Source: a virus (lineage: Duplodnaviria; Caudoviricetes). Taken from it: DNA of 64,000 nucleotides. The notes beneath the pieces were generated by a model that was given only the letters and a program-made list of their open reading frames with translations, was not told where the DNA came from and did not search any database. Positions 31,268 through 59,458 of the stretch are shown in pieces. Numbering within the stretch: the stretch's first letter is position 1; every line of letters begins with the position of its first letter. The stretch lies in IMG/VR virus record IMGVR_UViG_3300021431_004509, positions 32,001 to 96,000 of that record. One strand, 5' to 3'. The translations under genes were made by a program, and so were the position numbers.

Positions 31268-32998
31268 TAGGTAATTCAATAATTATCATGTACACCACCG
31301 AAACTCGGTGGTGTTTTTAATTGCTATCATTCTTTTTCCATACCTCCTTTCTTTCTCATCGGGGCGGGTTTTCCATCCGCCCCACATGGCACCATGTACA
31401 AGCCTCCACGCGGCGGTGCTGGATAATCAACCGATTGTACAATAGGATGACGCCCGGCCAGGCTCCGTATGGACATGGGCAATAGCCGCCATGGCCGGGG
31501 CATCCGACAAAAAAAGGGGTTATGCGTGGAACGATATGTCGTACATGGTATCAAAGAATACCGTAGTTTTCGGCGGACATGAAACGTGGTTAAAGGCCAT
31601 AAGGCTGGAATTGTCCGGGAAAATAAGGTATGTGGGACGCGAGGAATCGTTTAACACTCTGATTATCAGGAACGCAGAGGTTATCTGGATTCAGCCGAAT
31701 GCCATCGCTCACAAGCAGTATTACAAAATAATAAACGTATCCAGAAGATACGGGAAACCTGTGCGGTATTTCAAAAATGCAAGTGCTTCTATCTGTATCA
31801 AACAGATAAAGGAAGCAGACGGCGGAAACGCATAAAGGGGGATTCTTATGGGAGATAATTGGGGTTTGCATCGGTGGTATTACAGCAAGACCACCGGGGA
31901 AATCGTCAAGACCATCGGCGAGGTTATCCGCCACGCGGCGTTTAACCTGTTCAAGTTCCGGTTGCTGGATTTTCGCTGGGCCGTTATCTGGCTCAATCAG
32001 TGAGGGAAATCTATGACGGAATTTGACGCAGCAAATCTAAAGAACGGCGACGTGATCGAGTATCACGGAAACGTATGCAGGGTTCTCCGTGTGTACAAGA
32101 ATCCTGTTCTCGTTGAGTGCCAGACCATAGACCGGGAATTTCCGCACTGGCATTTGGTTCGCCCCGGCGGGTGCAGGAAAATCACGCAGTAGGAGGGAAA
32201 TATGGTTGGGATTTGCCTTGCCAAAAAGGCAAGTATCACTTATACGCACGGGGAAATCGGGAACGAGGAAACCGCGCACATCAATCAGTGTTCAATTACC
32301 TTGCCGCGTCCGTTTTACAAGGTCGAGGCATGGGGCGAGACTTTTTATGATGTCTTTATGCCCGAAGTAGAAAGATGGGTCGGGTTTACCGCGCAGGATT
32401 TCGACGAGGAATTTCTCGTCGTCCAGTTCGATGACGGGGTTATTATCCCGCACACAAAACGGAGGCACCGGAAAAGGAGCTAAGCATGGAAATCTGTTTT
32501 CAGAACAGGAAAACAGGTGAGGAAATCACCTACCACGATGCTGTCGGGTATTTCAAAGCGGCAGACAATGACGGCCCGGTTATTCAGGCAGTTTTTGAGG
32601 ACGGGGAAACGGCAACCTTCCATCAGTCCGAGTGGGACTGCTTCGTTCGTGAATGGAGGGAAATTAAGTAACCCATGTACGTCAGGAAAACGCGAGATCG
32701 CTGGGATATTATGACCAACTGGGGATACGGTTGGGAATGTGAGTACAGCGCGTACTCATACGGCGAGGCTCGCAGCATCCTCAAGGATTACCGCGAGAAC
32801 TCCTGCGGCAGGTTTTCTGTGCGCATGGAAAAGCACCGTGAAAGGATCGTATAGGTATGCGGAAGAAATACGTCTACAAGCTTCTGAAGATCCGCGACGG
32901 GGAAACATGGCCGAAGGGGTCTGTTATCTGGGCTTTGCAGCCGTGTAAGGGCTGGAGAGTGATCGGGAAATCCCCTATTTAACGGAGGTAATAATCCG

Positions 32999-35428: not shown

Positions 35429-35827
35429 ATGGCAAAAATCACGATCGTCGGCGACGCAGTTGTCGTCACCTCCACCCTCAAGTTCGAGGACATCAAGCTC
35501 GTCCAGAAGGTCCGCCCCAAGGCGCTGACCGTCTATGGCGAGGAGGATGGAAAGAAGGTTCCTGTCTTCGGCATCTGCACTGCTGACGGCAAGGGCCACA
35601 TCAGCGAGTCCGGGATTTCCTTCGGCGGCGCTACCCGCGACGGCGAGGGCCTGGCTCAGATCACCATGGGCGTGCCTTCCAAGGAGGGCAGCGTCAAGGA
35701 GCTGGTCGCGGATGCGATCGGCGGCGCCGTCATGCAGCTGAACAAGCTGGAGGCCACCCTTCCCGCCGTGATCGAGGAGATCAAGGCTGAGAAGACCGCG
35801 ATGCTGGACAGCATCGTTCTGGCCTGA
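35429..35827 (+). CDS. Hypothetical protein upstream of Ubl gene
   Basis: Strong RBS and codon bias. Confidence 0.8.
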   Translation: MAKITIVGDAVVVTSTLKFEDIKLVQKVRPKALTVYGEEDGKKVPVFGICTADGKGHISESGISFGGATRDGEGLAQITMGVPSKEGSVKELVADAIGGAVMQLNKLEATLPAVIEEIKAEKTAMLDSIVLA

Positions 35828-35924
35828 TCCTCCGGCGGGCCGGGGTTCCCGGCCCGCCGCACTACCCACATCAAAATCACAAAACAAAAACCATCAAAAA
35901 AAAAGAGTAAAAGGAGAATAAAAA

Positions 35925-36155
35925 ATGATCAAAGTCTATGTCGGTAACAACGTCGATCGCTGGCCCGTTCTCTGCGATCCCAACACCACCCTCCGTGCTA
36001 TCCTTGAGCAGGAGAAAATCGACTATTCCCGCGCTTCCATGCACCTGGACGGCGCCACCCTGCAGCCCGGCGACCTGGACAAGACCTTCGCCGAGCTCGG
36101 CATCAAGAGCCAGTGCTTCCTGCTCTCCGTGCAGAAGCTGGACAACGCGCGCTAA
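35925..36155 (+). CDS. Ubiquitin-like (beta-grasp) protein
   Basis: 76 aa; ubiquitin-like pattern (IKVYV..TTLRAIL..LDG..L..LDKTFAELGI..LLSV); operon with E2/JAB/E1. Confidence 0.75.
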   Translation: MIKVYVGNNVDRWPVLCDPNTTLRAILEQEKIDYSRASMHLDGATLQPGDLDKTFAELGIKSQCFLLSVQKLDNAR

Positions 36156-36163
36156 GTAACGCC

Positions 36164-36192
36164 AACTCCCCCGGAAATTCCGGGGGAGTTTT
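36164..36192 (+). terminator. Hairpin plus T tract after Ubl
   Basis: AACTCCCCCGGAA/TTCCGGGGGAGTT. Confidence 0.7.
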
Positions 36193-36196
36193 ATAT

Positions 36197-36288
36197 CCCG
36201 AAGTGGCGGAACGGTTAGACGCAGGGCACTTTCAGCCCGGCCAGAGTGCGCGCCTGGCGTCCTGGTTCGAATCCAGGCTTCGGGGCCA
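36197..36288 (+). tRNA. Atypical class II (Ser/Leu-like) tRNA with shortened anticodon arm
   Basis: CCCGAAG/CTTCGGG acceptor, G73-CCA, GGTTCGAATCC T arm, long variable arm; anticodon arm GGGC-ACTTTCA-GCCC. Confidence 0.7.
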
Positions 36289-36323
36289 CGATAAATAAAA
36301 AATAAGTTGAGGTGAGGGAATAA

Positions 36324-37772
36324 ATGTTTAACACACGCGTCATGGATACGGCTTTCACCACGGAGGCCGCCAATGCGTTCTTCAGCGAGAAGATCTCTGG
36401 CGTATCGTACGACGGAGACTTGTCTCTGCTCTCCACGCTCAGGGCATTGCTCCTTAACCGTATGGGAAAAGACGATTCCCTGTATGCATCGTTTTCCTCC
36501 TGGGCGATGAGCTCGCAGCGGCAGGGGAACTATACCAATGAGCAGCTGCTCGACAGCATCAGAAGCAGGTTCACGCCGAATGACAACGAGTTCCGCGTGT
36601 GCTCCTTTAATTCTGAGGATCGCGAAGGGAATGACAAGCTCTATGAGCTGACCAATTCCTACTTTGCGCAGCCCGGAAACGGGTGGGTAAAGCTCGATGC
36701 CATCACGAAATTCTGCAAAAAGAAGTTCGATGTCCTCTGCTTTATCAACGAGCGGAAAAAGTCCACGATCTTCGTCCTGAAGGAGCTGACACTCCGCAAG
36801 CTCCACTACATCCAGGTCGCTGCGCTCACGGCAATGCCCTGGTATTTCAATGTTACCGGCGGCGACAAGGTCAGTGAGAAAGAGATCGCGCTTCTGAACG
36901 CCATCTGCGAGGATACCGCTGACGGGTATCTGAGAGCTCTCGAAGACATCGCTGCGGATTTCGATTTCGAAACCGAGTTCGTCCGCAACAGTCTCTCCAG
37001 AATCGAGACCGCGTACGAGCGTGAGAGAGTCGGTGATGTCCGGCGCGAGATCGAGAATCTCATGGAAAAAATCAACGAGTATCAGGTGTACATCAATACC
37101 TACCTGCGCTCCATGAACGACAAGAACGCAGAGCTCCTCGGCCTGGAAACGAAGATCAACAACGGCGACGGGGAATCCGTCCTCAGCGAGTACTTCCTGT
37201 GCAACAAGCATTTGAAGCTCGACCGCGTCTCCGGCACGGAAATCTACTTCCATGTCAACGACTACCTCACATACTACGATGAGGACATGGCGCAGAACTT
37301 TATTGATTCTGCCAGGAGCGTTATCTACACCAATATTCCTGCCGATAAACGTGAGGATGCCAAGCGTCTGGCGACGGCGGTTTTTGTCGACGGTACGGTC
37401 AAGATCCGTATGTGCGCCGCATATATGCTGGATATCCGCGGCGGATTTGACGGCTGCACTTCGTATGATTTCCACGGGGACGACAGCAGCAGAATCCCCA
37501 ATACGCATATCAATGCGTACCGCTGCCTCGGCAACTACATTTCGACGATCAATGAGCGGATGAAGAGCCGCGATTTCATCGGGGTTCTGGAGCAGATGAT
37601 GGCGTCTGCGAAGAGTATGAACTTCGCTGACGGCGTCGTGATCAGCAGGTTTTTCAGAGACCTTTACAACGGTGTTGGCGGCAAGTGCTTTGAGCTTGCG
37701 GACGGCACCACAATGAATCTGGAAGAGGTGTTTGCCTATCTCGAAAAGGAGGAAGAAAAGAAAGATGAGTAA
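36324..37772 (+). CDS. Coiled-coil protein with C-terminal prokaryotic E2-like domain
   Basis: PNTHINAYRCLG resembles the E2 catalytic Cys motif; between Ubl and JAB. Confidence 0.6.
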   Translation: MFNTRVMDTAFTTEAANAFFSEKISGVSYDGDLSLLSTLRALLLNRMGKDDSLYASFSSWAMSSQRQGNYTNEQLLDSIRSRFTPNDNEFRVCSFNSEDREGNDKLYELTNSYFAQPGNGWVKLDAITKFCKKKFDVLCFINERKKSTIFVLKELTLRKLHYIQVAALTAMPWYFNVTGGDKVSEKEIALLNAICEDTADGYLRALEDIAADFDFETEFVRNSLSRIETAYERERVGDVRREIENLMEKINEYQVYINTYLRSMNDKNAELLGLETKINNGDGESVLSEYFLCNKHLKLDRVSGTEIYFHVNDYLTYYDEDMAQNFIDSARSVIYTNIPADKREDAKRLATAVFVDGTVKIRMCAAYMLDIRGGFDGCTSYDFHGDDSSRIPNTHINAYRCLGNYISTINERMKSRDFIGVLEQMMASAKSMNFADGVVISRFFRDLYNGVGGKCFELADGTTMNLEEVFAYLEKEEEKKDE

Positions 37773-38760
37773 GATCATCCGCTTCACGCCCGAGCTTGTG
37801 GAGGAGATGCGCCGGGAGTTTGAGGAATCTCTCCTGAATGCGAAGCTGGTCAACGGCAGGTTCAGCTTTGTGAAGTCCTTCAACAGCTCCGCGGAAAAGG
37901 CGACGCTCACCTTTACGGAGCAGTCCTATCTCAAGATGCAGGCGTTGATCGATGCGATCGACAAGGAGGTCGCCTGGCACTGTGTCGCCGAACGCTGCGA
38001 GGAAAACAAGTACCGCATCTCGGATATCCTGGTCTATCCCCAGACCGTCAGCGGCGCAACCGTTGATATGGATACCAAGGAATACGCCAAGTGGATCGAG
38101 CAGGGGATTATCTCCGGCGACGAACGCTTTGATCATCTCTACGCCCAGGGGCATTCCCATGTAAATATGGCGGTGTCCCCGTCCACCACAGACCTCGATC
38201 ATCAGGCTGAGATCCTGAAGATGGTCCGCGACAACGGGTTCTATATCTTTATGATATGGAACAAAAAGAACGACCACAATATCTGGATCTACGACATGGC
38301 GAAGAATACCGTGTTCGAAAATTCCGATATCAAGGTCGAGGTCGAGGAGGAGGAAAACGGTCTCACCAAGTTCCTGCGTGAGGCGAAGCCCATGGTAAAG
38401 AACATGGCTTACACCACTCCGACATATGCAGGCGGCTATGGCGGCGGTTACGGCGGTTACGGCGGCTATGGCGGCTACGGCGGCGGTTATGGGAACTATG
38501 GCAGCGGGTACGGCGGGTATTCCGGCGGGAGGTATTCCGGCGGCGCCGCCTCGCAGCAGTCCAAGAAGGATCAGCCGCCCGCAACCAAGAGCATTGTCCC
38601 CGTTACAAAGAACGAGCCCAAGGGTGCTGTCCCGCCAAGAAATACGGCGGCTCAGAAGCCGAGGGTGACAGCCGTCGTCAACAGAGATACCGATGATGAC
38701 GATGACGACGATCCGTCTTCTCCGTTTTACGTGAACGATCATTATTACGGACTGGACTGA
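37765..38760 (+). CDS. JAB/JAMM metalloprotease with GGY-rich tail
   Basis: E...HSHVNMAVSPSTTD matches HxH-x7-S-x2-D. Confidence 0.85.
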   Translation: MSKIIRFTPELVEEMRREFEESLLNAKLVNGRFSFVKSFNSSAEKATLTFTEQSYLKMQALIDAIDKEVAWHCVAERCEENKYRISDILVYPQTVSGATVDMDTKEYAKWIEQGIISGDERFDHLYAQGHSHVNMAVSPSTTDLDHQAEILKMVRDNGFYIFMIWNKKNDHNIWIYDMAKNTVFENSDIKVEVEEEENGLTKFLREAKPMVKNMAYTTPTYAGGYGGGYGGYGGYGGYGGGYGNYGSGYGGYSGGRYSGGAASQQSKKDQPPATKSIVPVTKNEPKGAVPPRNTAAQKPRVTAVVNRDTDDDDDDDPSSPFYVNDHYYGLD

Positions 38761-38773
38761 AGGGAGGTATAAC

Positions 38774-39445
38774 ATGGATCTTTCGAAAAGCTATGACTAC
38801 TTTCAGCCGGAAAAAGACGAGTCCCGCCTCCACATCGTAGGATGCGGTTCCGTCGGATCAACTCTTGCTGAGAACCTGGCCAGATGCGGGCTGAAGAACT
38901 TCACCTTGTGGGATTTTGACAAGGTGGAACGGCACAACATCGTCAATCAGATGTTCCGCTCCGAAGATGTCGGCCGTCTGAAGGTCGACGCGCTCAAGGA
39001 TATTCTGGTCGAAATCAACCCGGAATGTGAGGACAGCGTCCAGACCAGACCCAAGGGCTGGCAGGGAAAAATGATGTCCGGCTACATCTTCCTGTGTGTG
39101 GATAACATCGAGCTCCGCCGGAAGATCGTGGAACAGCATATGGACAATACATTCGTGAAAGCTGTCTACGATTTCCGCACCGGCCTTGAATCCGCCCAGC
39201 ACTACGCCGCCGACTGGAGCAACGAGAAGATGCGTAAGGATCTTCTGAACTCCATGCAGTTCTCACATGAGGAGGCGGCGGAATCCGCCCCGGTTTCCGC
39301 CTGTGGTGTAACGCTCGGCCTTTGCCCGGTGGTTCGCCTGATCTGCGCTTACGGGACGGCAAATCACATCAACTTCGTAAACGGCAAGGGGCTGAAGAAG
39401 ATGGTCATGGCCGACGTGTTCCGCATGGACACGATGGCATTCTGA
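38774..39445 (+). CDS. ThiF/E1-like adenylating enzyme
   Basis: GCGSVG, DFDKVERHNIVNQ, K, CVDN...R motifs; SACG Cys. Confidence 0.9.
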   Translation: MDLSKSYDYFQPEKDESRLHIVGCGSVGSTLAENLARCGLKNFTLWDFDKVERHNIVNQMFRSEDVGRLKVDALKDILVEINPECEDSVQTRPKGWQGKMMSGYIFLCVDNIELRRKIVEQHMDNTFVKAVYDFRTGLESAQHYAADWSNEKMRKDLLNSMQFSHEEAAESAPVSACGVTLGLCPVVRLICAYGTANHINFVNGKGLKKMVMADVFRMDTMAF

Positions 39446-39653
39446 TGAATCAAATCCCCAGCGGTCAGGCCAACCGACCGGTGCAAATTGACAGCACCCT
39501 GGGGCTTTGAGATAGACATGAGGCGCCAACACAAACATTTAATAAATTGTTGCCGCCGGAAGAGAAAAACATACGCGGCAAAGAAATTAAAGTTGTCGCG
39601 GGAGCAGGATTTGTTTTCCAGAAATAGTTGGTTTTGATCCCTGACAATTATTA

Positions 39654-39960
39654 GCTGTAACGTATACCATTCACCACCTTGAATGGACTCCTCGCTGTTA
39701 GTGGGAGTAACACTTTGACCGAGCATGAGAAGGCAGGCACCAGGCTGCGCCCGGCCGGCTTACCGAGTTGGATGCCGCTATAACAAACTAGTTCGCAAAA
39801 GTCAAGAGGGTAATCCTCGCTTTTGCACGAACATCTCACGAGTCGTTCACATTTCGCCAACCAGAACACCAAAAGTTGAACTGATTCGTTCATCTCGAAC
39901 AATTCATCGCCTTCAGACTGCAGGTATCCAGGACATCCAAAGTCCAGAGTTGGTTACAGC
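39654..39960 (+). ncRNA. Retron-like msr-msd ncRNA unit 1
   Basis: GCTGTAAC/GTTACAGC closing stem, G39662, hairpins CCATTCA/TGAATGG and ACTCC-T-CGCT-GTT-AGTG-GGAGT; directly upstream of RT. Confidence 0.8.
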
Positions 39961-39983
39961 AACACGAAAGAAAGGAGAAAAAC

Positions 39984-41153
39984 ATGTACTATGTCGCGGT
40001 GAAAGCTCCGCCGAGATATCACCAGATGACTCTGGAAGAGCTTTTGTACGGAACAAGTCGTGACATGCTGGTCACGAAGAACGAAACCAACACAAGAACA
40101 TACGAGATGGAAACGGTCAGTGAGAAGTTCCTCCGCGGGTTTTATGTCGAGCCGATGATCCGTATGCTTGAGAAGTTCAACGAGTCTACGGCAGAACTCC
40201 GCAGCGTCAACCGCAGGGATCTGTATCATTCGTTCTTTATTCCGAAGAAGAACGGCGGCAAGCGGCATATCGACGCTCCGCGTCCGGAATTGATGGACGC
40301 GCTCCGCAGACTGAAAACGATGTTTGAGGTCGCGTTTTACCCGATCAATCGCGAGACTTCTGTCCAGACCACCTATTATCACACGTCGGCGTTTGCGTAT
40401 ATCGCCGGTAGATGTACCATCGACGCCGTAAAGCGACATCAGGCAAACGAAAGCCGCTGGTTTGGCAAGCTGGACTTTTCAAACTTCTTTGGCACGACCA
40501 CGCTCGACTTCGCTATGAGGATGCTGTCGATGGTTTTCCCGTTCTGCGAAATCTGCCGGACAGACCACGGTCGAGAGGAACTTCGCAAGGCGGTTGAGCT
40601 TGGTTTTCTGGATGGTGTTCTCCCGCAGGGGACGCCGCTGTCACCGCTCCTTACGAACATCATCATGCTCCCCATCGACTTCCGGCTTTCCGGCAAACTT
40701 CGTGACGTAGACGGCAACAGCTTTGTGTATACTCGCTACGCAGACGACATGCTGATTTCCTCCAGATACAATTTCAATATCCGGCAGATTGAAGATGTCG
40801 TCCTCAGCGTCCTGTCCGATTTCGACGCACCGTACCGCCTGAACAGGGAGAAGACAAGATACGGGTCTTCTGCCGGTTCTAACTGGAATCTCGGCGTGAT
40901 GCTGAACAAGGACAACAAGATCACCGTCGGGTATAAGAACAAACAGCGCTTTCAGGCAATGCTCGCAACCTATGCGGTCGACCATAACAACGGAGTCCGC
41001 TGGGACTACGGGGATCTGATGCACATGGAGGGGCTTCGCAGCTATTACCGATCCGTCGAGGGCGACACGATTGACAGGATCGTAAAGCACGTCGGCGATA
41101 AATTTCACCTGGATATCGTGTCGGCAATCAAGCAAGATCTCAGGCCCGCCTAA
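39984..41153 (+). CDS. Retron-type reverse transcriptase
   Basis: IPKKNGGKR, HTSAFAY, DAVKRH (NAxxH-like), LDFSNFF, LPQGTPLSP, YTRYADD, NLG (VTG-like); no maturase or endonuclease domain. Confidence 0.92.
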   Translation: MYYVAVKAPPRYHQMTLEELLYGTSRDMLVTKNETNTRTYEMETVSEKFLRGFYVEPMIRMLEKFNESTAELRSVNRRDLYHSFFIPKKNGGKRHIDAPRPELMDALRRLKTMFEVAFYPINRETSVQTTYYHTSAFAYIAGRCTIDAVKRHQANESRWFGKLDFSNFFGTTTLDFAMRMLSMVFPFCEICRTDHGREELRKAVELGFLDGVLPQGTPLSPLLTNIIMLPIDFRLSGKLRDVDGNSFVYTRYADDMLISSRYNFNIRQIEDVVLSVLSDFDAPYRLNREKTRYGSSAGSNWNLGVMLNKDNKITVGYKNKQRFQAMLATYAVDHNNGVRWDYGDLMHMEGLRSYYRSVEGDTIDRIVKHVGDKFHLDIVSAIKQDLRPA

Positions 41154-41503: not shown

Positions 41504-42076
41504 ATGACACAGGCAGAATGGGAAAATCAGATCGAAGATTGGTATGACCTTCGATCCTGGTGTATCGACAACGGGTATTTTGAGGATGAAATGTATGATA
41601 TCCTCGACGACTATGAGCTGAACGACAGCGTCAGCGAGGATATCAATAACTTTGACGGCGACTGGATGTCGCTTCGTGACAACCTGGATGATATCAGTAC
41701 CGGGTATACCATCTACCGCCGCGACGGCTCCTTCGACTACGTTGGTCTCGGCGACAGAGACTTCCACGATAAGAAAGAGGAGGTTCTCGATTATCTCATC
41801 GAAATCGGGTACTTCGATCCTGAGGAAGAAGAGGCTCCCGAGGAAGACGACGAGGAAGTCGAACCGTTTGATCCGGAGCTGCCGGAGCCGGAACCTGCTG
41901 ACACGGAGGAAAGCGAATCGTGGACGATCGACTTTGACCTTGACACGATCTTTGCGATCGCAAGCGTCAATGTCGCCATTATGATGGACAGCCGCCCTGT
42001 CGAACCCGAACGTCAGCCGGTAGAGCCAGAGCCCGCAGACGATACCGACCTGTCTGAGCTCATCCCGCTGTTCTGA
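41504..42076 (+). CDS. Very acidic protein
   Basis: AGGAGG RBS; D/E-rich. Confidence 0.8.
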   Translation: MTQAEWENQIEDWYDLRSWCIDNGYFEDEMYDILDDYELNDSVSEDINNFDGDWMSLRDNLDDISTGYTIYRRDGSFDYVGLGDRDFHDKKEEVLDYLIEIGYFDPEEEEAPEEDDEEVEPFDPELPEPEPADTEESESWTIDFDLDTIFAIASVNVAIMMDSRPVEPERQPVEPEPADDTDLSELIPLF

Positions 42077-45944: not shown

Positions 45945-46116
45945 CAGGCGGGTGCTTGACATTCTGCCGCGACGAGGAAACAGATGACGGGATCGGCTTC
46001 CGTACATCTGCGGAGTCCGCCGAGGGTTTGGACAGTCCCCACAGGCCGATGTAGGAGAAACCGAAAGAAAATGTCCGCTGCAACCCGGTGCATGCGACGT
46101 GCCGGGTTGTGTTTAT

Positions 46117-57238: not shown

Positions 57239-59458
57239 TTGAGAACACTTCTTCTCCTTCGCGGCGCCCCGGGATGCGGGAAATCCACCTGGATTCGGGA
57301 GCACGGCCTGGAGGACTACGCGCTTTCCGCAGACAAGATCCGCATGATGTGCGCCGGGCCTAAGCTGATGCCGGATGGAACCGTCGCCATTGATGCGACC
57401 AATGACACCGTCGTCTGGAAAACGCTGTTTCAGCTTCTGGAAATCCGGATGCAGAACGGCGAGTTCACTGTCATCGACGCCACCAATTCCAAGGCTTCCG
57501 ACATCAACAAATACAAGGATCTCTGCGATTCTTACAAGTACCGTATCTACTGCGTCGACATGACGGATCTTCCCATCGAGACCTGTAAGGAGCGCAACCG
57601 CTCCAGACCGGAACTGCAGCAGGTTCCCGACGAGGCGATCGACAAGATGTACGCCCGGTTCGAGACACAGAAGATCCCCTCCGGCGTCACGGTGATCGGA
57701 CCTGACGAGCTGGACAGGATCTGGATGAAGCGCATCGACCTCTCCGAATACAAGGCCGTCCACCACATCGGGGACATCCACGGCAGCTATACGGCGCTGA
57801 TGGAGTATTTCAAGGACGGGCTCAAGGACGACGAGTGCTACATCTTCCTCGGCGATTACCTCGACCGAGGCATCGAAAACGCAGACGTCCTGAAATTCCT
57901 GCTGGAAATCTACGAGAAGCCGAACGTGTTCCTTTTGGAGGGGAACCATGAGCGTTGGCTTTGGGTGTACGGAAACGGCGGCACCACCAAGTCCAAGGAA
58001 TTTGAGTTCTTCACCAGGCCGGAGCTGGACGATGCCGGGATCGACAAGAAAGCGGTGCGGAAATTCTATCGCCGCATCGGGCAGTGCGCCTGGTATACCT
58101 ACCACGGCAGGGAAGTTTTTGTCTGCCACGGCGGGCTTTCCGCCATGCCGTCGAACCCGACGCTTGTCTCCACGCAACAGTTGATCAAGGGCGTCGGCAA
58201 CTACAAAGACCACAACACGATCGCAAAGAGCTTTGACGAGCGTGCCGCCGAGAATCTCATCCAGATCCACGCTCACCGGAATGTCAGCAGCTGCCCCATC
58301 AAGGAGAGCGAGCACTGCTATAACCTGGAGGGACATGTGGAATTCGGCGGGTTCCTCCGCTGCCTGAAGCTCACGCCTGACGGCGTCGAGGAATTTGAGA
58401 TCAAGAATACCGTCTTCCGCAAGGAAAACATCATCAACTACCAGCCGAAGACCCAGGATGAACATACGAAAACTTCCATCGGCGATCTGATCATGCGGCT
58501 TCGCAATAACCGCTACGTCCAGGAAAAGCGCTTCGGGGATATCTCTTCCTTCAACTTCACCAAGGCTGCCTTCTACGACAAGGTCTGGGACGAGCAGACC
58601 ATGAAAGCCCGCGGGCTTTACATCGACATCCCCCATCAGAAGATCGTCGCCAGGGCGTACGACAAGTTCTTCAACATCAACGAACGTCCTGAGACCAAGC
58701 TGGACATGCTGCCGTACAAGCTGACCTTCCCGGCCAGAGCTTACCGGAAGGAGAACGGCTTCCTCGGCATCGTCTCCTACCTCCAGGCAACGGATGACTT
58801 CTTCATCACCACCAAGTCCACACCGGACGGGGATTTTGCCCAGTGGTTCCGGGCTTTGTTTGAGACGCAGATCCGCCCGATCGACAGGGAATATCTCAAG
58901 CTCTTCCTGCGGGAACACGATGTCTCCGCCGTCTTCGAGTGTGTGGATATGGTTCACGACCCACACGTGATCGAGTACCCGGACAGCCGGATCTACCTGC
59001 TTGACCTGGTGGAAAACAAGATCCCGTTCTCCAAGCTCTCCTACGACGAGGTGCAGAACCTCGCAAGTACGCTCAAGATCCGGGCAAAGAAACTGGAGTA
59101 CGGCTTTGCCGACTGGCAGGAATTCTTCGACTGGTACAACACCGTTACCATGGACAGCAACAACGACCACATCGAGGGTTATGTGGTCGAGGGCGCCAAC
59201 GGGTATATGGTCAAGGTGAAGCTCCCGTACTACAACTTCTGGAAGCACATGCGCTCCGTTGCCCACTCAGTCATCAAGTCCGGCGGGATTCGCAAGGATC
59301 ACGCGGCCTCCTTGACAACGCCTCTGGCAAATCACTTCGTTGCCTGGGCAAAGACGCTGCACGATTCCCCGGATGTCGACAGCCTCCCGAAGGATATCTG
59401 CAATCTCAGACAGATGTTCTTCCAGTCTGACGAGGGAAAACCTTTCGCAGACTCGTAA
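57239..59458 (+). CDS. Polynucleotide kinase-phosphoesterase-RNA ligase fusion (RNA repair)
   Basis: GAPGCGKS and IDATN kinase; DIHG/GDYLDRG/GNHE phosphoesterase; KFFN, KENG, EGYV, KVK ligase motifs. Confidence 0.9.
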   Translation: MRTLLLLRGAPGCGKSTWIREHGLEDYALSADKIRMMCAGPKLMPDGTVAIDATNDTVVWKTLFQLLEIRMQNGEFTVIDATNSKASDINKYKDLCDSYKYRIYCVDMTDLPIETCKERNRSRPELQQVPDEAIDKMYARFETQKIPSGVTVIGPDELDRIWMKRIDLSEYKAVHHIGDIHGSYTALMEYFKDGLKDDECYIFLGDYLDRGIENADVLKFLLEIYEKPNVFLLEGNHERWLWVYGNGGTTKSKEFEFFTRPELDDAGIDKKAVRKFYRRIGQCAWYTYHGREVFVCHGGLSAMPSNPTLVSTQQLIKGVGNYKDHNTIAKSFDERAAENLIQIHAHRNVSSCPIKESEHCYNLEGHVEFGGFLRCLKLTPDGVEEFEIKNTVFRKENIINYQPKTQDEHTKTSIGDLIMRLRNNRYVQEKRFGDISSFNFTKAAFYDKVWDEQTMKARGLYIDIPHQKIVARAYDKFFNINERPETKLDMLPYKLTFPARAYRKENGFLGIVSYLQATDDFFITTKSTPDGDFAQWFRALFETQIRPIDREYLKLFLREHDVSAVFECVDMVHDPHVIEYPDSRIYLLDLVENKIPFSKLSYDEVQNLASTLKIRAKKLEYGFADWQEFFDWYNTVTMDSNNDHIEGYVVEGANGYMVKVKLPYYNFWKHMRSVAHSVIKSGGIRKDHAASLTTPLANHFVAWAKTLHDSPDVDSLPKDICNLRQMFFQSDEGKPFADS

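Follow-up and report, generated by a model that had tools for sequence, protein, structure and literature searches.

A putative ubiquitin-like conjugation cassette of undescribed protein families in a large gut phage, linked to a retron-type reverse transcriptase

Does this phage own a pathway for attaching a ubiquitin-like tag to proteins, and if so which genes belong to it? To our knowledge, ubiquitin-like conjugation in bacteria has so far been described as a host defence, in the Bil, CBASS (Cap2/Cap3) and Bub systems. The question was raised by a first-pass annotation of the window, the whole 64,000 nt stretch of DNA that was analyzed (positions 32,001 to 96,000 of IMG/VR virus record IMGVR_UViG_3300021431_004509). 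It described a ubiquitin-patterned ORF, an E2-like protein, a JAMM protease and a ThiF/E1 protein as a complete phage-encoded conjugation cassette, and suggested that it may serve host takeover, counter-defence or the exclusion of competing phages. The record is 117,148 bp in length and is from a gut phage. The window encodes a portal protein, a large terminase and an integrase, which bears out the carrier as a phage. All four ORFs and the motifs quoted for them were located at the coordinates given, all on the plus strand (Table 1). At 35,429, where the described region begins, a fifth conserved gene also starts; it encodes a 132 aa protein (A132) and had not been described. The named genes are all present, but A132 and a retron-type reverse transcriptase (RT) were equally conserved, so the set as first drawn was incomplete. 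A Shine-Dalgarno sequence and an ATG start were found at each of the four cassette genes. The stop of the C482 gene overlaps the start of the JAB gene by 8 nt and the gap between the JAB and ThiF genes is 13 nt, giving the region an operon-like build.

Table 1. Positions of the cassette genes and adjoining features in the window.
Feature	Position	Strand	Evidence
A132, 132 aa conserved partner protein	35429..35827	+	ORF; tblastn, hhalign
76 aa ubiquitin-like tag	35925..36155	+	ends ...KLDNA-R
Hairpin and T-run, then type-II tRNA-like gene	36166..36288	+	sequence, ARAGORN
C482, 482 aa Cys/His protein	36324..37772	+	AF2 model, conservation
JAB/JAMM metallopeptidase	37765..38760 (open frame from 37732)	+	PADLOC JAB, JAMM residues
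Minimal single-domain E1 (ThiF/MoeB/UBA5 type), 223 aa	38774..39445	+	Pfam ThiF
Non-coding spacer before RT	39446..39983	+	RNA fold z-score
Retron-type reverse transcriptase	39984..41153	+	RVT_1, NCBIfam, PADLOC

The tag has the beta-grasp fold of ubiquitin. The ubiquitin pattern noticed in the first-pass annotation was borne out by structure and by Foldseek, where the top 50 matches were all ubiquitin, SUMO, NEDD8 and kin. The tag family does not have the Gly(-Gly) end usual for ubiquitin-like modifiers; its conserved terminal residue is Ala. A conserved Asp-Asn-Ala was present in nearly all of 120 representatives; 83 stop at this point while 34 carry 1-8 further variable residues. The tag in the window has a single Arg overhang after ...DNA. 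A conserved end with a variable overhang is typical of processed ubiquitin-like proteins, and processing of the tag is implied as well. Overhangs of 2-9 residues are likewise found at the C-terminus of BilA (10.1101/2023.09.04.556158). A precedent for a C-terminal Ala is CdnD of E. cloacae, which ends in ...GRFA and is adenylated by Cap2 (10.1101/2022.03.31.486616). The tag was far more conserved than its enzymes, with a mean column identity of 64-66% compared to 34% for C482.

The JAMM protease and ThiF/E1 assignments both held, with matches much stronger than chance would give. The JAB protein consists of a peptidase of ~210 aa followed by a low-complexity tail, acidic and rich in Gly and Tyr, of roughly 90-120 aa. 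The motif HSH-x7-S-x2-D spans residues 130-143, numbered from the ATG at 37,765. The JAMM zinc site is intact, with E68, H130, H132, S140 and D143 conserved at a level of at least 95% in 85 homologs. The PADLOC JAB match was 7.9e-8 and the Pfam Prok-JAB match was 0.031 (14.6 bits, below the cut-off of 25). The E1 is a member of Pfam family PF00899 (ThiF, 3.1e-23, 82.6 bits compared to a cut-off of 28.1). It is a minimal E1 in which the adenylation residues are intact and Cys177 is kept: G23xG25xxG28, D47, D49, N55, Q59, K70, D110, R115 and C177 were conserved at a level of at least 95% in 73 homologs. Cys177 is part of PVSACG (family motif PxSAC) and, judging from sequence offsets to MoeB and ThiF, probably lies in or near the crossover loop. 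The best solved relatives of the E1 were UBA5 (8.5e-10), UBA1 and MoeB (2e-9), with weaker matches to MccB and Cap2. PADLOC models of CBASS E1-E2 proteins matched residues 16-97 only.

An E1 of the minimal ThiF/MoeB type would also suit a ThiS/MoaD-type sulfur carrier. The E1 would then make a thiocarboxylate on the tag for thiolation, for example of phage tRNAs, and the JAB peptidase would trim the tag in the manner of Mec+ or QbsD. JAB peptidases do accompany sulfur carriers, as in CysO/Mec+ and QbsE/QbsD, and the window encodes 12 tRNA genes and a Pnkp-RNA ligase. The tag, however, has Asp-Asn-Ala in place of Gly-Gly, and its structural matches listed above are to protein modifiers. From its Cys positions the E1 is without the CxxC zinc motifs of MoeB, and no rhodanese, cysteine desulfurase, PP-loop protein, or thiazole or molybdopterin synthase was found among the nine ORFs in or beside the cassette. 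A role in sulfur transfer is considered very unlikely.

The assignment of C482 as an E2, given as the weakest part of the first-pass annotation, is only putative: C482 resembles UBC enzymes in its active-site motif and in how its helices and strands are ordered, but no family or fold match was obtained. C482 contains PNTHINAYRCLG. The AF2 model (pLDDT 90.5) comprises an N-terminal alpha/beta domain (residues 1-210), a long helix of ~66 residues (215-280) and a C-terminal alpha/beta domain (283-482). The C-terminal domain carries PN-x-H395-x5-C401 and N433. In 27 diverse C482 sequences H395, C401 and N433 were invariant and P392 and N393 nearly so (at least 90%). The combination of a Cys with a PN loop that marks E2/UBC enzymes is present, with 8 residues from the Asn of P392-N393 to Cys401. 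This PN-x7-C spacing matches that between HPN and Cys in UBC enzymes. C482 has no His before its PN; the invariant His395 comes after it. The C-terminal domain of the model has a UBC-like order of helix, two strands, helical insert, two strands, PN loop, Cys and three helices. Cys401 is the only invariant Cys in the cassette outside the E1. The family is phage-only and very large, with 2,331 clusters at 50% identity; in all of the 150 matches listed for it the domain was at the C-terminal end, mostly of proteins of ~480 aa. No Pfam match to UQ_con or Prok-E2 was found at E ≤ 5 among 31 C482 members, and PF14460 had no match at E ≤ 10 anywhere in the whole phage. Comparison of C482 with one Prok-E2_D protein using hhalign gave a probability of 0.2%, and searches against PDB profiles returned no E2. 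Foldseek and VIA searches with the model of the whole protein gave no E2, their lists being filled by matches to the long helix and the N-terminal domain. C482 is a candidate E2-like transfer enzyme.

Proteins may instead be tagged while C482 plays some other role. The E1 could transfer the tag directly, A132 could be the E2 equivalent, or C482 could serve as an adaptor of E3 type, as an effector or as the chief substrate. The lack of an E2 match for C482 in the Pfam, PDB-profile, hhalign, Foldseek and VIA searches is in keeping with this, as are some features of A132. A132 was detected by tblastn in 41 of 54 dereplicated loci and by hhalign, with a probability of 99.1%, in one further clade. 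In three related phages (L056, L058 and L059) the tag and A132 form a single in-frame fusion, with A132 immediately after the tag. The fusions resemble type I Bub, where BubAB is a ubiquitin-like protein fused to an E2 part of 133 residues which uses Ser rather than Cys, and they parallel the BubAB precursor in being a possible target of a JAB peptidase, by which BubAB is cut (PMC11601596). A132 has invariant S15 and T79, but neither has an invariant His, Asp or Lys partner near it. Apart from S15, T79 and E108, most of the invariant positions are Gly or hydrophobic residues. Comparison of A132 with a Prok-E2_D protein and with the C482 domain using hhalign was null, and searches of Pfam, PHROG, PDB and Atlas returned no match to it. 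A132 may act as a substrate or an adaptor. The sole invariant Cys outside the E1 is in C482, in a PN...C context, and C482 is as constant a member of the block as the E1. These points argue against a cassette in which C482 is not the E2, which is considered unlikely.

The RT matched RVT_1 (2.5e-16), PADLOC RT_II-A (2.1e-40) and NCBIfam retron_St85 (3.5e-45). The best models were those of retrons (St85 / type II-A), with an NCBIfam score of 154.5 bits that is below the curated cut-off of 235. The spacer before the RT folds better than shuffled sequence (RNA fold z-score −3.74). In related loci the distance between ThiF and RT is 317-1,872 nt, and of 13 loci inspected most have no ORF of at least 60 aa in the ~300-400 nt that immediately precede the RT. 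Gene order is kept in related loci despite inserted genes. When 54 dereplicated loci were anchored on the tag gene, C482, JAB, E1 and RT were each present in 54/54 while flanking ORFs were present in 0-16. The complete block was found in 82/86 loci from the tag side, and the whole cassette was upstream of the RT in 69/71 loci counted from the RT side. The link persists down to ~35-48% tag identity and 24-30% C482 identity. Partial sets were found in a few contigs: L082 and L101 contain A132 and the tag only, L105 is without C482 and JAB, and L097 has no RT within 4.2 kb.

All of these loci are from related phages that make up a single broad group, large phages of gut and rumen, so the constant adjacency of the RT may partly reflect common descent. 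The cassette and the retron could be independent neighbours which travel together through shared phage ancestry, the cassette serving the phage alone in host takeover or counter-defence. The interval between ThiF and the RT can hold unrelated genes, and ThiF, ubiquitin and JAB are never mentioned in a description of 13 retron types (PMC7736814). The pairing of a ubiquitin-like cassette with a retron-type RT was not found in the literature searched. Independent neighbours are nevertheless judged improbable given an RT in every dereplicated locus compared to the scattered flanking ORFs, a link which holds in both directions, and its persistence at low tag and C482 identity.

The reading considered somewhat probable is a phage-owned ubiquitin-like conjugation pathway of undescribed families, inherited as one block with the retron-type RT. 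In such a pathway the JAB peptidase would cut off the residues after ...DNA of the tag: Arg in this phage, 1-8 residues in others, and all of A132 in the fusions. The minimal E1, which probably forms a homodimer as MoeB and UBA5 do, would adenylate the exposed C-terminal Ala, and the tag would be taken onto Cys177 of the crossover loop. The tag would then pass to Cys401 of C482, at an active site to which His395, Asn433 and the Pro-Asn located 8 residues upstream would also belong. The N-terminal domain and long helix of C482 may select the target. The tag would be joined to an amine of the target, candidates being A132, the RT, and host or rival-phage proteins, and the JAB peptidase could reverse the mark. 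The constant link suggests that the cassette and the RT work together, with tagging as the output or a regulator of the retron. A further reading joins the five-gene kit and the retron into one machine, a retron of a new type whose reverse-transcribed DNA would sense ubiquitin-like conjugation or be controlled by it. It would be a near-constant module of a very large phage lineage from the gut, rumen and termite gut, used for rival-phage exclusion or host control. This is advanced tentatively, as plausible and falling a little short of probable.

The cassette was compared to known systems. BilABCD are type I/II bacterial ISG15-like anti-phage operons (PMC10557695, 10.1101/2023.09.04.556158). 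They are part of bacterial defence islands whereas this cassette is carried by a phage, and their tag ends in Gly rather than Ala. The E1 here is a single domain of 223 aa, unlike the IAD-AAD-CYS arrangement of the Bil E1 (PMC11601596), so the Bil architecture is absent. The putative E2 is a three-part protein of 482 aa without detectable UBC homology, and a 132 aa partner and linkage to a retron-type RT are additional. No Bil-type match for the tag or C482 was found in PADLOC. The best defence-library matches of the E1 and JAB were to Cap2-type E1-E2 models and CBASS JAB models, respectively. Type II CBASS is also similar in that Cap2 adenylates an Ala-ended substrate and a JAB peptidase opposes conjugation (10.1101/2022.03.31.486616). 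It differs in that its E1 is fused to an E2, the Cap2 models matching the present E1 over residues 16-97 only, and in that its substrate is a cyclase tail and not a free ubiquitin-fold protein. No nucleotide cyclase family was matched among the six proteins, and the CD-NTase and Cap2 pair of type II CBASS is missing from them.

Type I Bub, or 6E, operons encode BubAB, BubCD and BubE (PMC11601596). Both they and the present family have a ubiquitin-like protein made as a fusion to the next protein, in three related phages here, where release by a JAB peptidase would be the counterpart. A minimal E1, probably of homodimer type here, and adjacency of JAB and E1 are also shared. Bub works through Ser and Tyr oxyesters with an E1 lacking Cys, whereas Cys177 and Cys401 are kept here. 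JAB and E1 are separate genes here and fused in Bub, and the partner fused to the tag, A132, is no more than a candidate for the E2 role. No DUF6527/BubE match was found in the locus, which does not classify as type I Bub. The locus is similar to retrons in an RT whose nearest models are St85 / type II-A, in the non-coding stretch before it and in the co-oriented accessory genes that are always present. Accessory genes always beside the RT are how retron effectors are recognized. It differs in having five accessory genes, a large phage as carrier and an RT that scores under the curated NCBIfam cut-off; partners of the ThiF, JAB or ubiquitin-like kind are absent from the retron types described (PMC7736814). 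The E1 is similar to UBA5, MoeB and ThiF in its single adenylation domain, in having all of the nucleotide- and Mg-binding residues, and in a Cys that probably lies in the crossover-loop region. It is shorter at 223 aa and has no zinc CxxC motifs, rhodanese domain or recognizable E2-binding tail.

This phage lineage would own a full-looking pathway whose families are unnamed in any library. Its novel parts include an Ala-ended tag, the 223 aa E1 and a Cys/His family of more than 2,000 clusters at 50% identity. If the pathway tags proteins, it mirrors bacterial ubiquitin-like immunity on the viral side, and its minimal E1 and tag make a tractable pair whose chemistry does not use glycine. Should it work with the RT, retrons would gain a new class of effector or regulator. 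A testable role is also assigned to C482, a very abundant gut-phage protein family.

The window is rich in tRNA genes and also contains a Pnkp-RNA ligase. A hairpin and T-run (36,166-36,195) directly follow the stop codon of the tag gene, and an aberrant tRNA-like gene is located between the tag and C482 genes. ARAGORN predicted this as a 92 nt tRNA-Lys(UUU) at 36,197-36,288, which scores under the Rfam tRNA gathering score. Its anticodon loop reads ACUUUCA, residue 73 is G rather than A, and its variable arm is longer. The same position was occupied by tRNA-Leu(UAA) in 12 of 22 related loci.

The virus record containing the window is 117,148 bp in length, is rated 99% complete and is classed as a provirus. 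Phage genes in the window are those for a portal protein, a large terminase, an integrase, an exonuclease and a 739-aa polynucleotide kinase/phosphatase (Pnkp)-RNA ligase fusion (phrog_8238, 6.8e-221), the latter being a tRNA-repair type enzyme. Twelve tRNA genes are also present in the window. The block under study encodes a 132-aa protein (A132), a 76-aa ubiquitin-like protein (the tag), a 482-aa Cys/His protein (C482), a JAB protein and a ThiF protein (E1), with a retron-type reverse transcriptase (RT) as its neighbour. The cassette ORFs and motifs observed in the first-pass annotation were confirmed.

Positions of the block, nearby features and features of related phage loci (L handles); all other coordinates are those of the window
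Feature	Position	Strand	Remarks
A132, 132-aa ORF	35429-35827	+	ATG start, Shine-Dalgarno site
Tag, 76-aa ORF	35925-36155	+	ATG start, Shine-Dalgarno site
Hairpin with T-run	36166-36195	+	Directly 3' of tag stop codon
Type-II tRNA-like gene	36197-36288	+	Between tag gene and C482
C482, 482-aa ORF	36324-37772	+	ATG start, Shine-Dalgarno site
JAB protein	37765 (probable start)-38760	+	ATG, Shine-Dalgarno; 8-nt overlap with C482 stop
JAB tail	38400-38760		Last ~120 residues
ThiF protein (E1), 223 aa	38774-39445	+	ATG start, Shine-Dalgarno site
ORF-free stretch, 538 nt	Between ThiF (ends 39445) and RT (starts 39984)		
Reverse transcriptase, 389 aa	39984-41153	+	ATG start, Shine-Dalgarno site
Acidic 190-aa protein	41504-42076		Downstream of RT
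Drum RNA (RF02958)	45970-46079		Inside tRNA cluster
Pnkp-RNA ligase fusion	57239-59458		
Tag-A132 fusion ORF, 206 aa	L056:4945-5565; L058:6462-7082; L059:6443-7063		
Partial block	L105:4132-6535		
tmRNA genes	L003:1540-1949; L063:146-528		Related phage contigs
tRNA with CUA anticodon	L061:2919-3013		

With the tag as anchor, C482, JAB, E1 and RT were found in the same order in 82 of the 86 loci with enough sequence. With RT as anchor, the whole kit was in the same order in 69 of 71 loci. C482, JAB, E1 and RT were each present in all 54 dereplicated loci (8 kb each side); the tag gene served as the anchor here, and its own 54/54 is by construction. The first-pass annotation had described a complete cassette of Ubl, E2-like protein, JAB and E1 at 35429-39445. 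The genes it named do recur in 54 of 54 loci, but A132 and RT had been left out. The ORFs flanking the block in the window were each found in 0-16 of the 54 loci. Gene order was kept despite inserted genes, with gaps of 3-2583 nt between JAB and E1 and 317-1872 nt between E1 and RT, and at deep divergence (identities as low as about 35% for the tag and 24% for C482). The block is an island of conservation within a variable region, and this favours the block and RT forming one functional unit, with shared phage descent possibly part of the reason.

The only deposited phage record similar at the nucleotide level, MT835544.1, carries the same block. The block was also present in MAG contigs from human, ruminant and termite guts, labelled mostly as Clostridia, Oscillospiraceae and Ruminococcus. 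Partial blocks were seen in a few MAG contigs: L105 (A132, tag, a 5'-shortened E1 and RT, without C482 and JAB) and L082 and L101 (A132 and tag only). These result from natural deletion or from misassembly. Homologs of the acidic 190-aa protein were located between JAB and E1 in six of 54 related loci and after RT in three; this protein may be an additional, non-obligatory component of the block.

The tag had no match in the family libraries Pfam, PHROG, NCBIfam and PADLOC. It had 222 homologs at about 60-84% identity, a conservation well above that of the neighbouring proteins. The conserved C-terminal end of the family is Lys-x-Asp-Asn-Ala. Of 120 representatives, 83 end directly with this motif, 34 carry 1-8 extra unrelated residues past the Ala (a single Arg in the window) and three have variant ends. 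The same pattern of a conserved end plus overhang occurs in BilA (10.1101/2023.09.04.556158), where the conserved end is Gly, whereas in the tag it is Ala. There is precedent for a C-terminal Ala in Enterobacter cloacae CdnD, which ends in ...GRFA and is adenylated by Cap2 (10.1101/2022.03.31.486616).

By tblastn, A132 was detected 5' of the tag gene in 41 of the 54 dereplicated loci, and profile comparison added one further clade (99.1% probability). In L056, L058 and L059 the two are fused in frame, with A132 directly after the ...DNA end of the tag, so the gene order is swapped compared to the window. This fusion is a natural Ubl-fusion precursor. The tag there could be activated only once cleaved, which parallels BubAB, a protein that BubCD cuts with its JAB domain (PMC11601596). 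A132 had no relative in Pfam, PHROGs, PADLOC, NCBIfam, PDB profiles or the Atlas, and no catalytic-looking invariant residues were found in it. The reading adopted is that A132 serves as a substrate or an adaptor, or is a partner released along with the tag; by analogy to Bub, a role as a small E2 is possible.

The match of the JAB protein to Pfam was poor (0.031), while CBASS-type JAB models from PADLOC matched at 7.9e-8. Residues E68, H130, H132, S140 and D143 were at least 95% conserved in 85 homologs and the JAMM site is therefore intact. The tail of the protein is Gly/Tyr-rich, acidic and of low complexity, with GGY/YGG runs. Such a tail is family-wide in the homologs, with a median length of 90 aa and 23% Gly plus Tyr. 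The ThiF protein scored well over the Pfam cut-off. By sequence, UBA5, the adenylation domain of UBA1 and MoeB are its closest solved relatives; MccB and Cap2 matched more weakly. The glycine loop, D47, N55, Q59, K70, D110 and R115 were at least 95% conserved in 73 homologs, as was Cys177 within a Pro-x-Ser-Ala-Cys motif. The position of Cys177 appears from the sequence to be that of the crossover-loop Cys in ThiF and MoeB.

The structure model of C482 (pLDDT 90.5) has an N-terminal alpha/beta domain, a single helix of ~66 residues and a C-terminal alpha/beta domain. The elements of the C-terminal domain run helix, two strands, helical insert, two strands, Pro-Asn loop, Cys and three helices, an order reminiscent of a UBC core that carries an insertion. 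H395, C401 and N433 did not vary among 27 diverse sequences, and P392 and N393 were nearly invariant. UBC enzymes have the signature HPN...Cys. The Asn of C482 sits 8 residues upstream of the Cys, a spacing like that of UBC enzymes. The Cys, His and Asn, the Pro-Asn motif and the element order make C482 a reasonable E2-like candidate, with the chances roughly even. The C-terminal domain profile matched 2331 clusters at 50% identity; in all 150 matches listed the domain was C-terminal, in proteins mostly of about 480 aa, and a stand-alone form was not found in the databases searched.

The tag, protease and E1 of the first-pass annotation stand, but the E2 assignment of C482, its weakest part, drew no E2 match from Pfam, PDB profiles, hhalign, Foldseek or VIA. 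The Foldseek check of the C482 model against the PDB gave nothing at E ≤ 0.001; the Foldseek and VIA results for whole C482 came mostly from the long helix and N-terminal domain and say next to nothing on the C-terminal domain. One uncharacterised homolog was found in BFVD. Against PDB sequence profiles whole C482 gave weak coiled-coil matches only and the C-terminal domain profile gave none. No Pfam family recurred at E ≤ 5 over 31 members. The ESM Atlas gave a faint Prok-E2_D lead (rank 21, score 0.84, 11% of one cluster), and hhalign of C482 against one Prok-E2_D protein was null. Prok-E2 comparators were sought in genomes, with one match to PF14460 in 301 genomes and none to PF14461 in 401, where the controls likewise gave no signal. 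A scan of viral contigs with a single C482 protein gave no match. A comparison of the two end domains of C482 by hhalign gave a null result, and an internal duplication was rejected.

The most likely mechanism is a tagging pathway in which JAB would prime the Ala-ended ubiquitin-like tag, E1 would activate it, and transfer to a target would proceed through Cys thioesters, the pathway working together with the neighbouring retron. Gene roles are like those of Bil, but the Bil E1 architecture is missing here. The E1 and JAB matches are like those of CBASS Cap2/Cap3, whereas the Cap2 fusion and the cyclase are missing. Type I Bub shares the fusion-and-cleavage logic, but its oxyester chemistry and BubE are missing. 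None of the 13 retron types of Mestre et al. has a ThiF, JAB or ubiquitin-like partner (PMC7736814). Full-text literature searches found no paper in which such a kit is linked to a retron or RT, and none on a phage-encoded kit of this sort.

In the window the tRNA-like gene is aberrant: ACUUUCA forms the anticodon loop (called as Lys-UUU, with C33), G replaces A at position 73, the variable arm is longer by 7 nt and the score is below the Rfam tRNA cut-off. Of 22 related loci, 12 have a tRNA-Leu(UAA) at this position. The gene is either decayed or re-purposed. The drum RNA scored 57.3 bits against a cut-off of 43. Two related phage contigs carry tmRNA genes, and the tRNA with the CUA anticodon is amber-reading and was labelled Pyl by ARAGORN.
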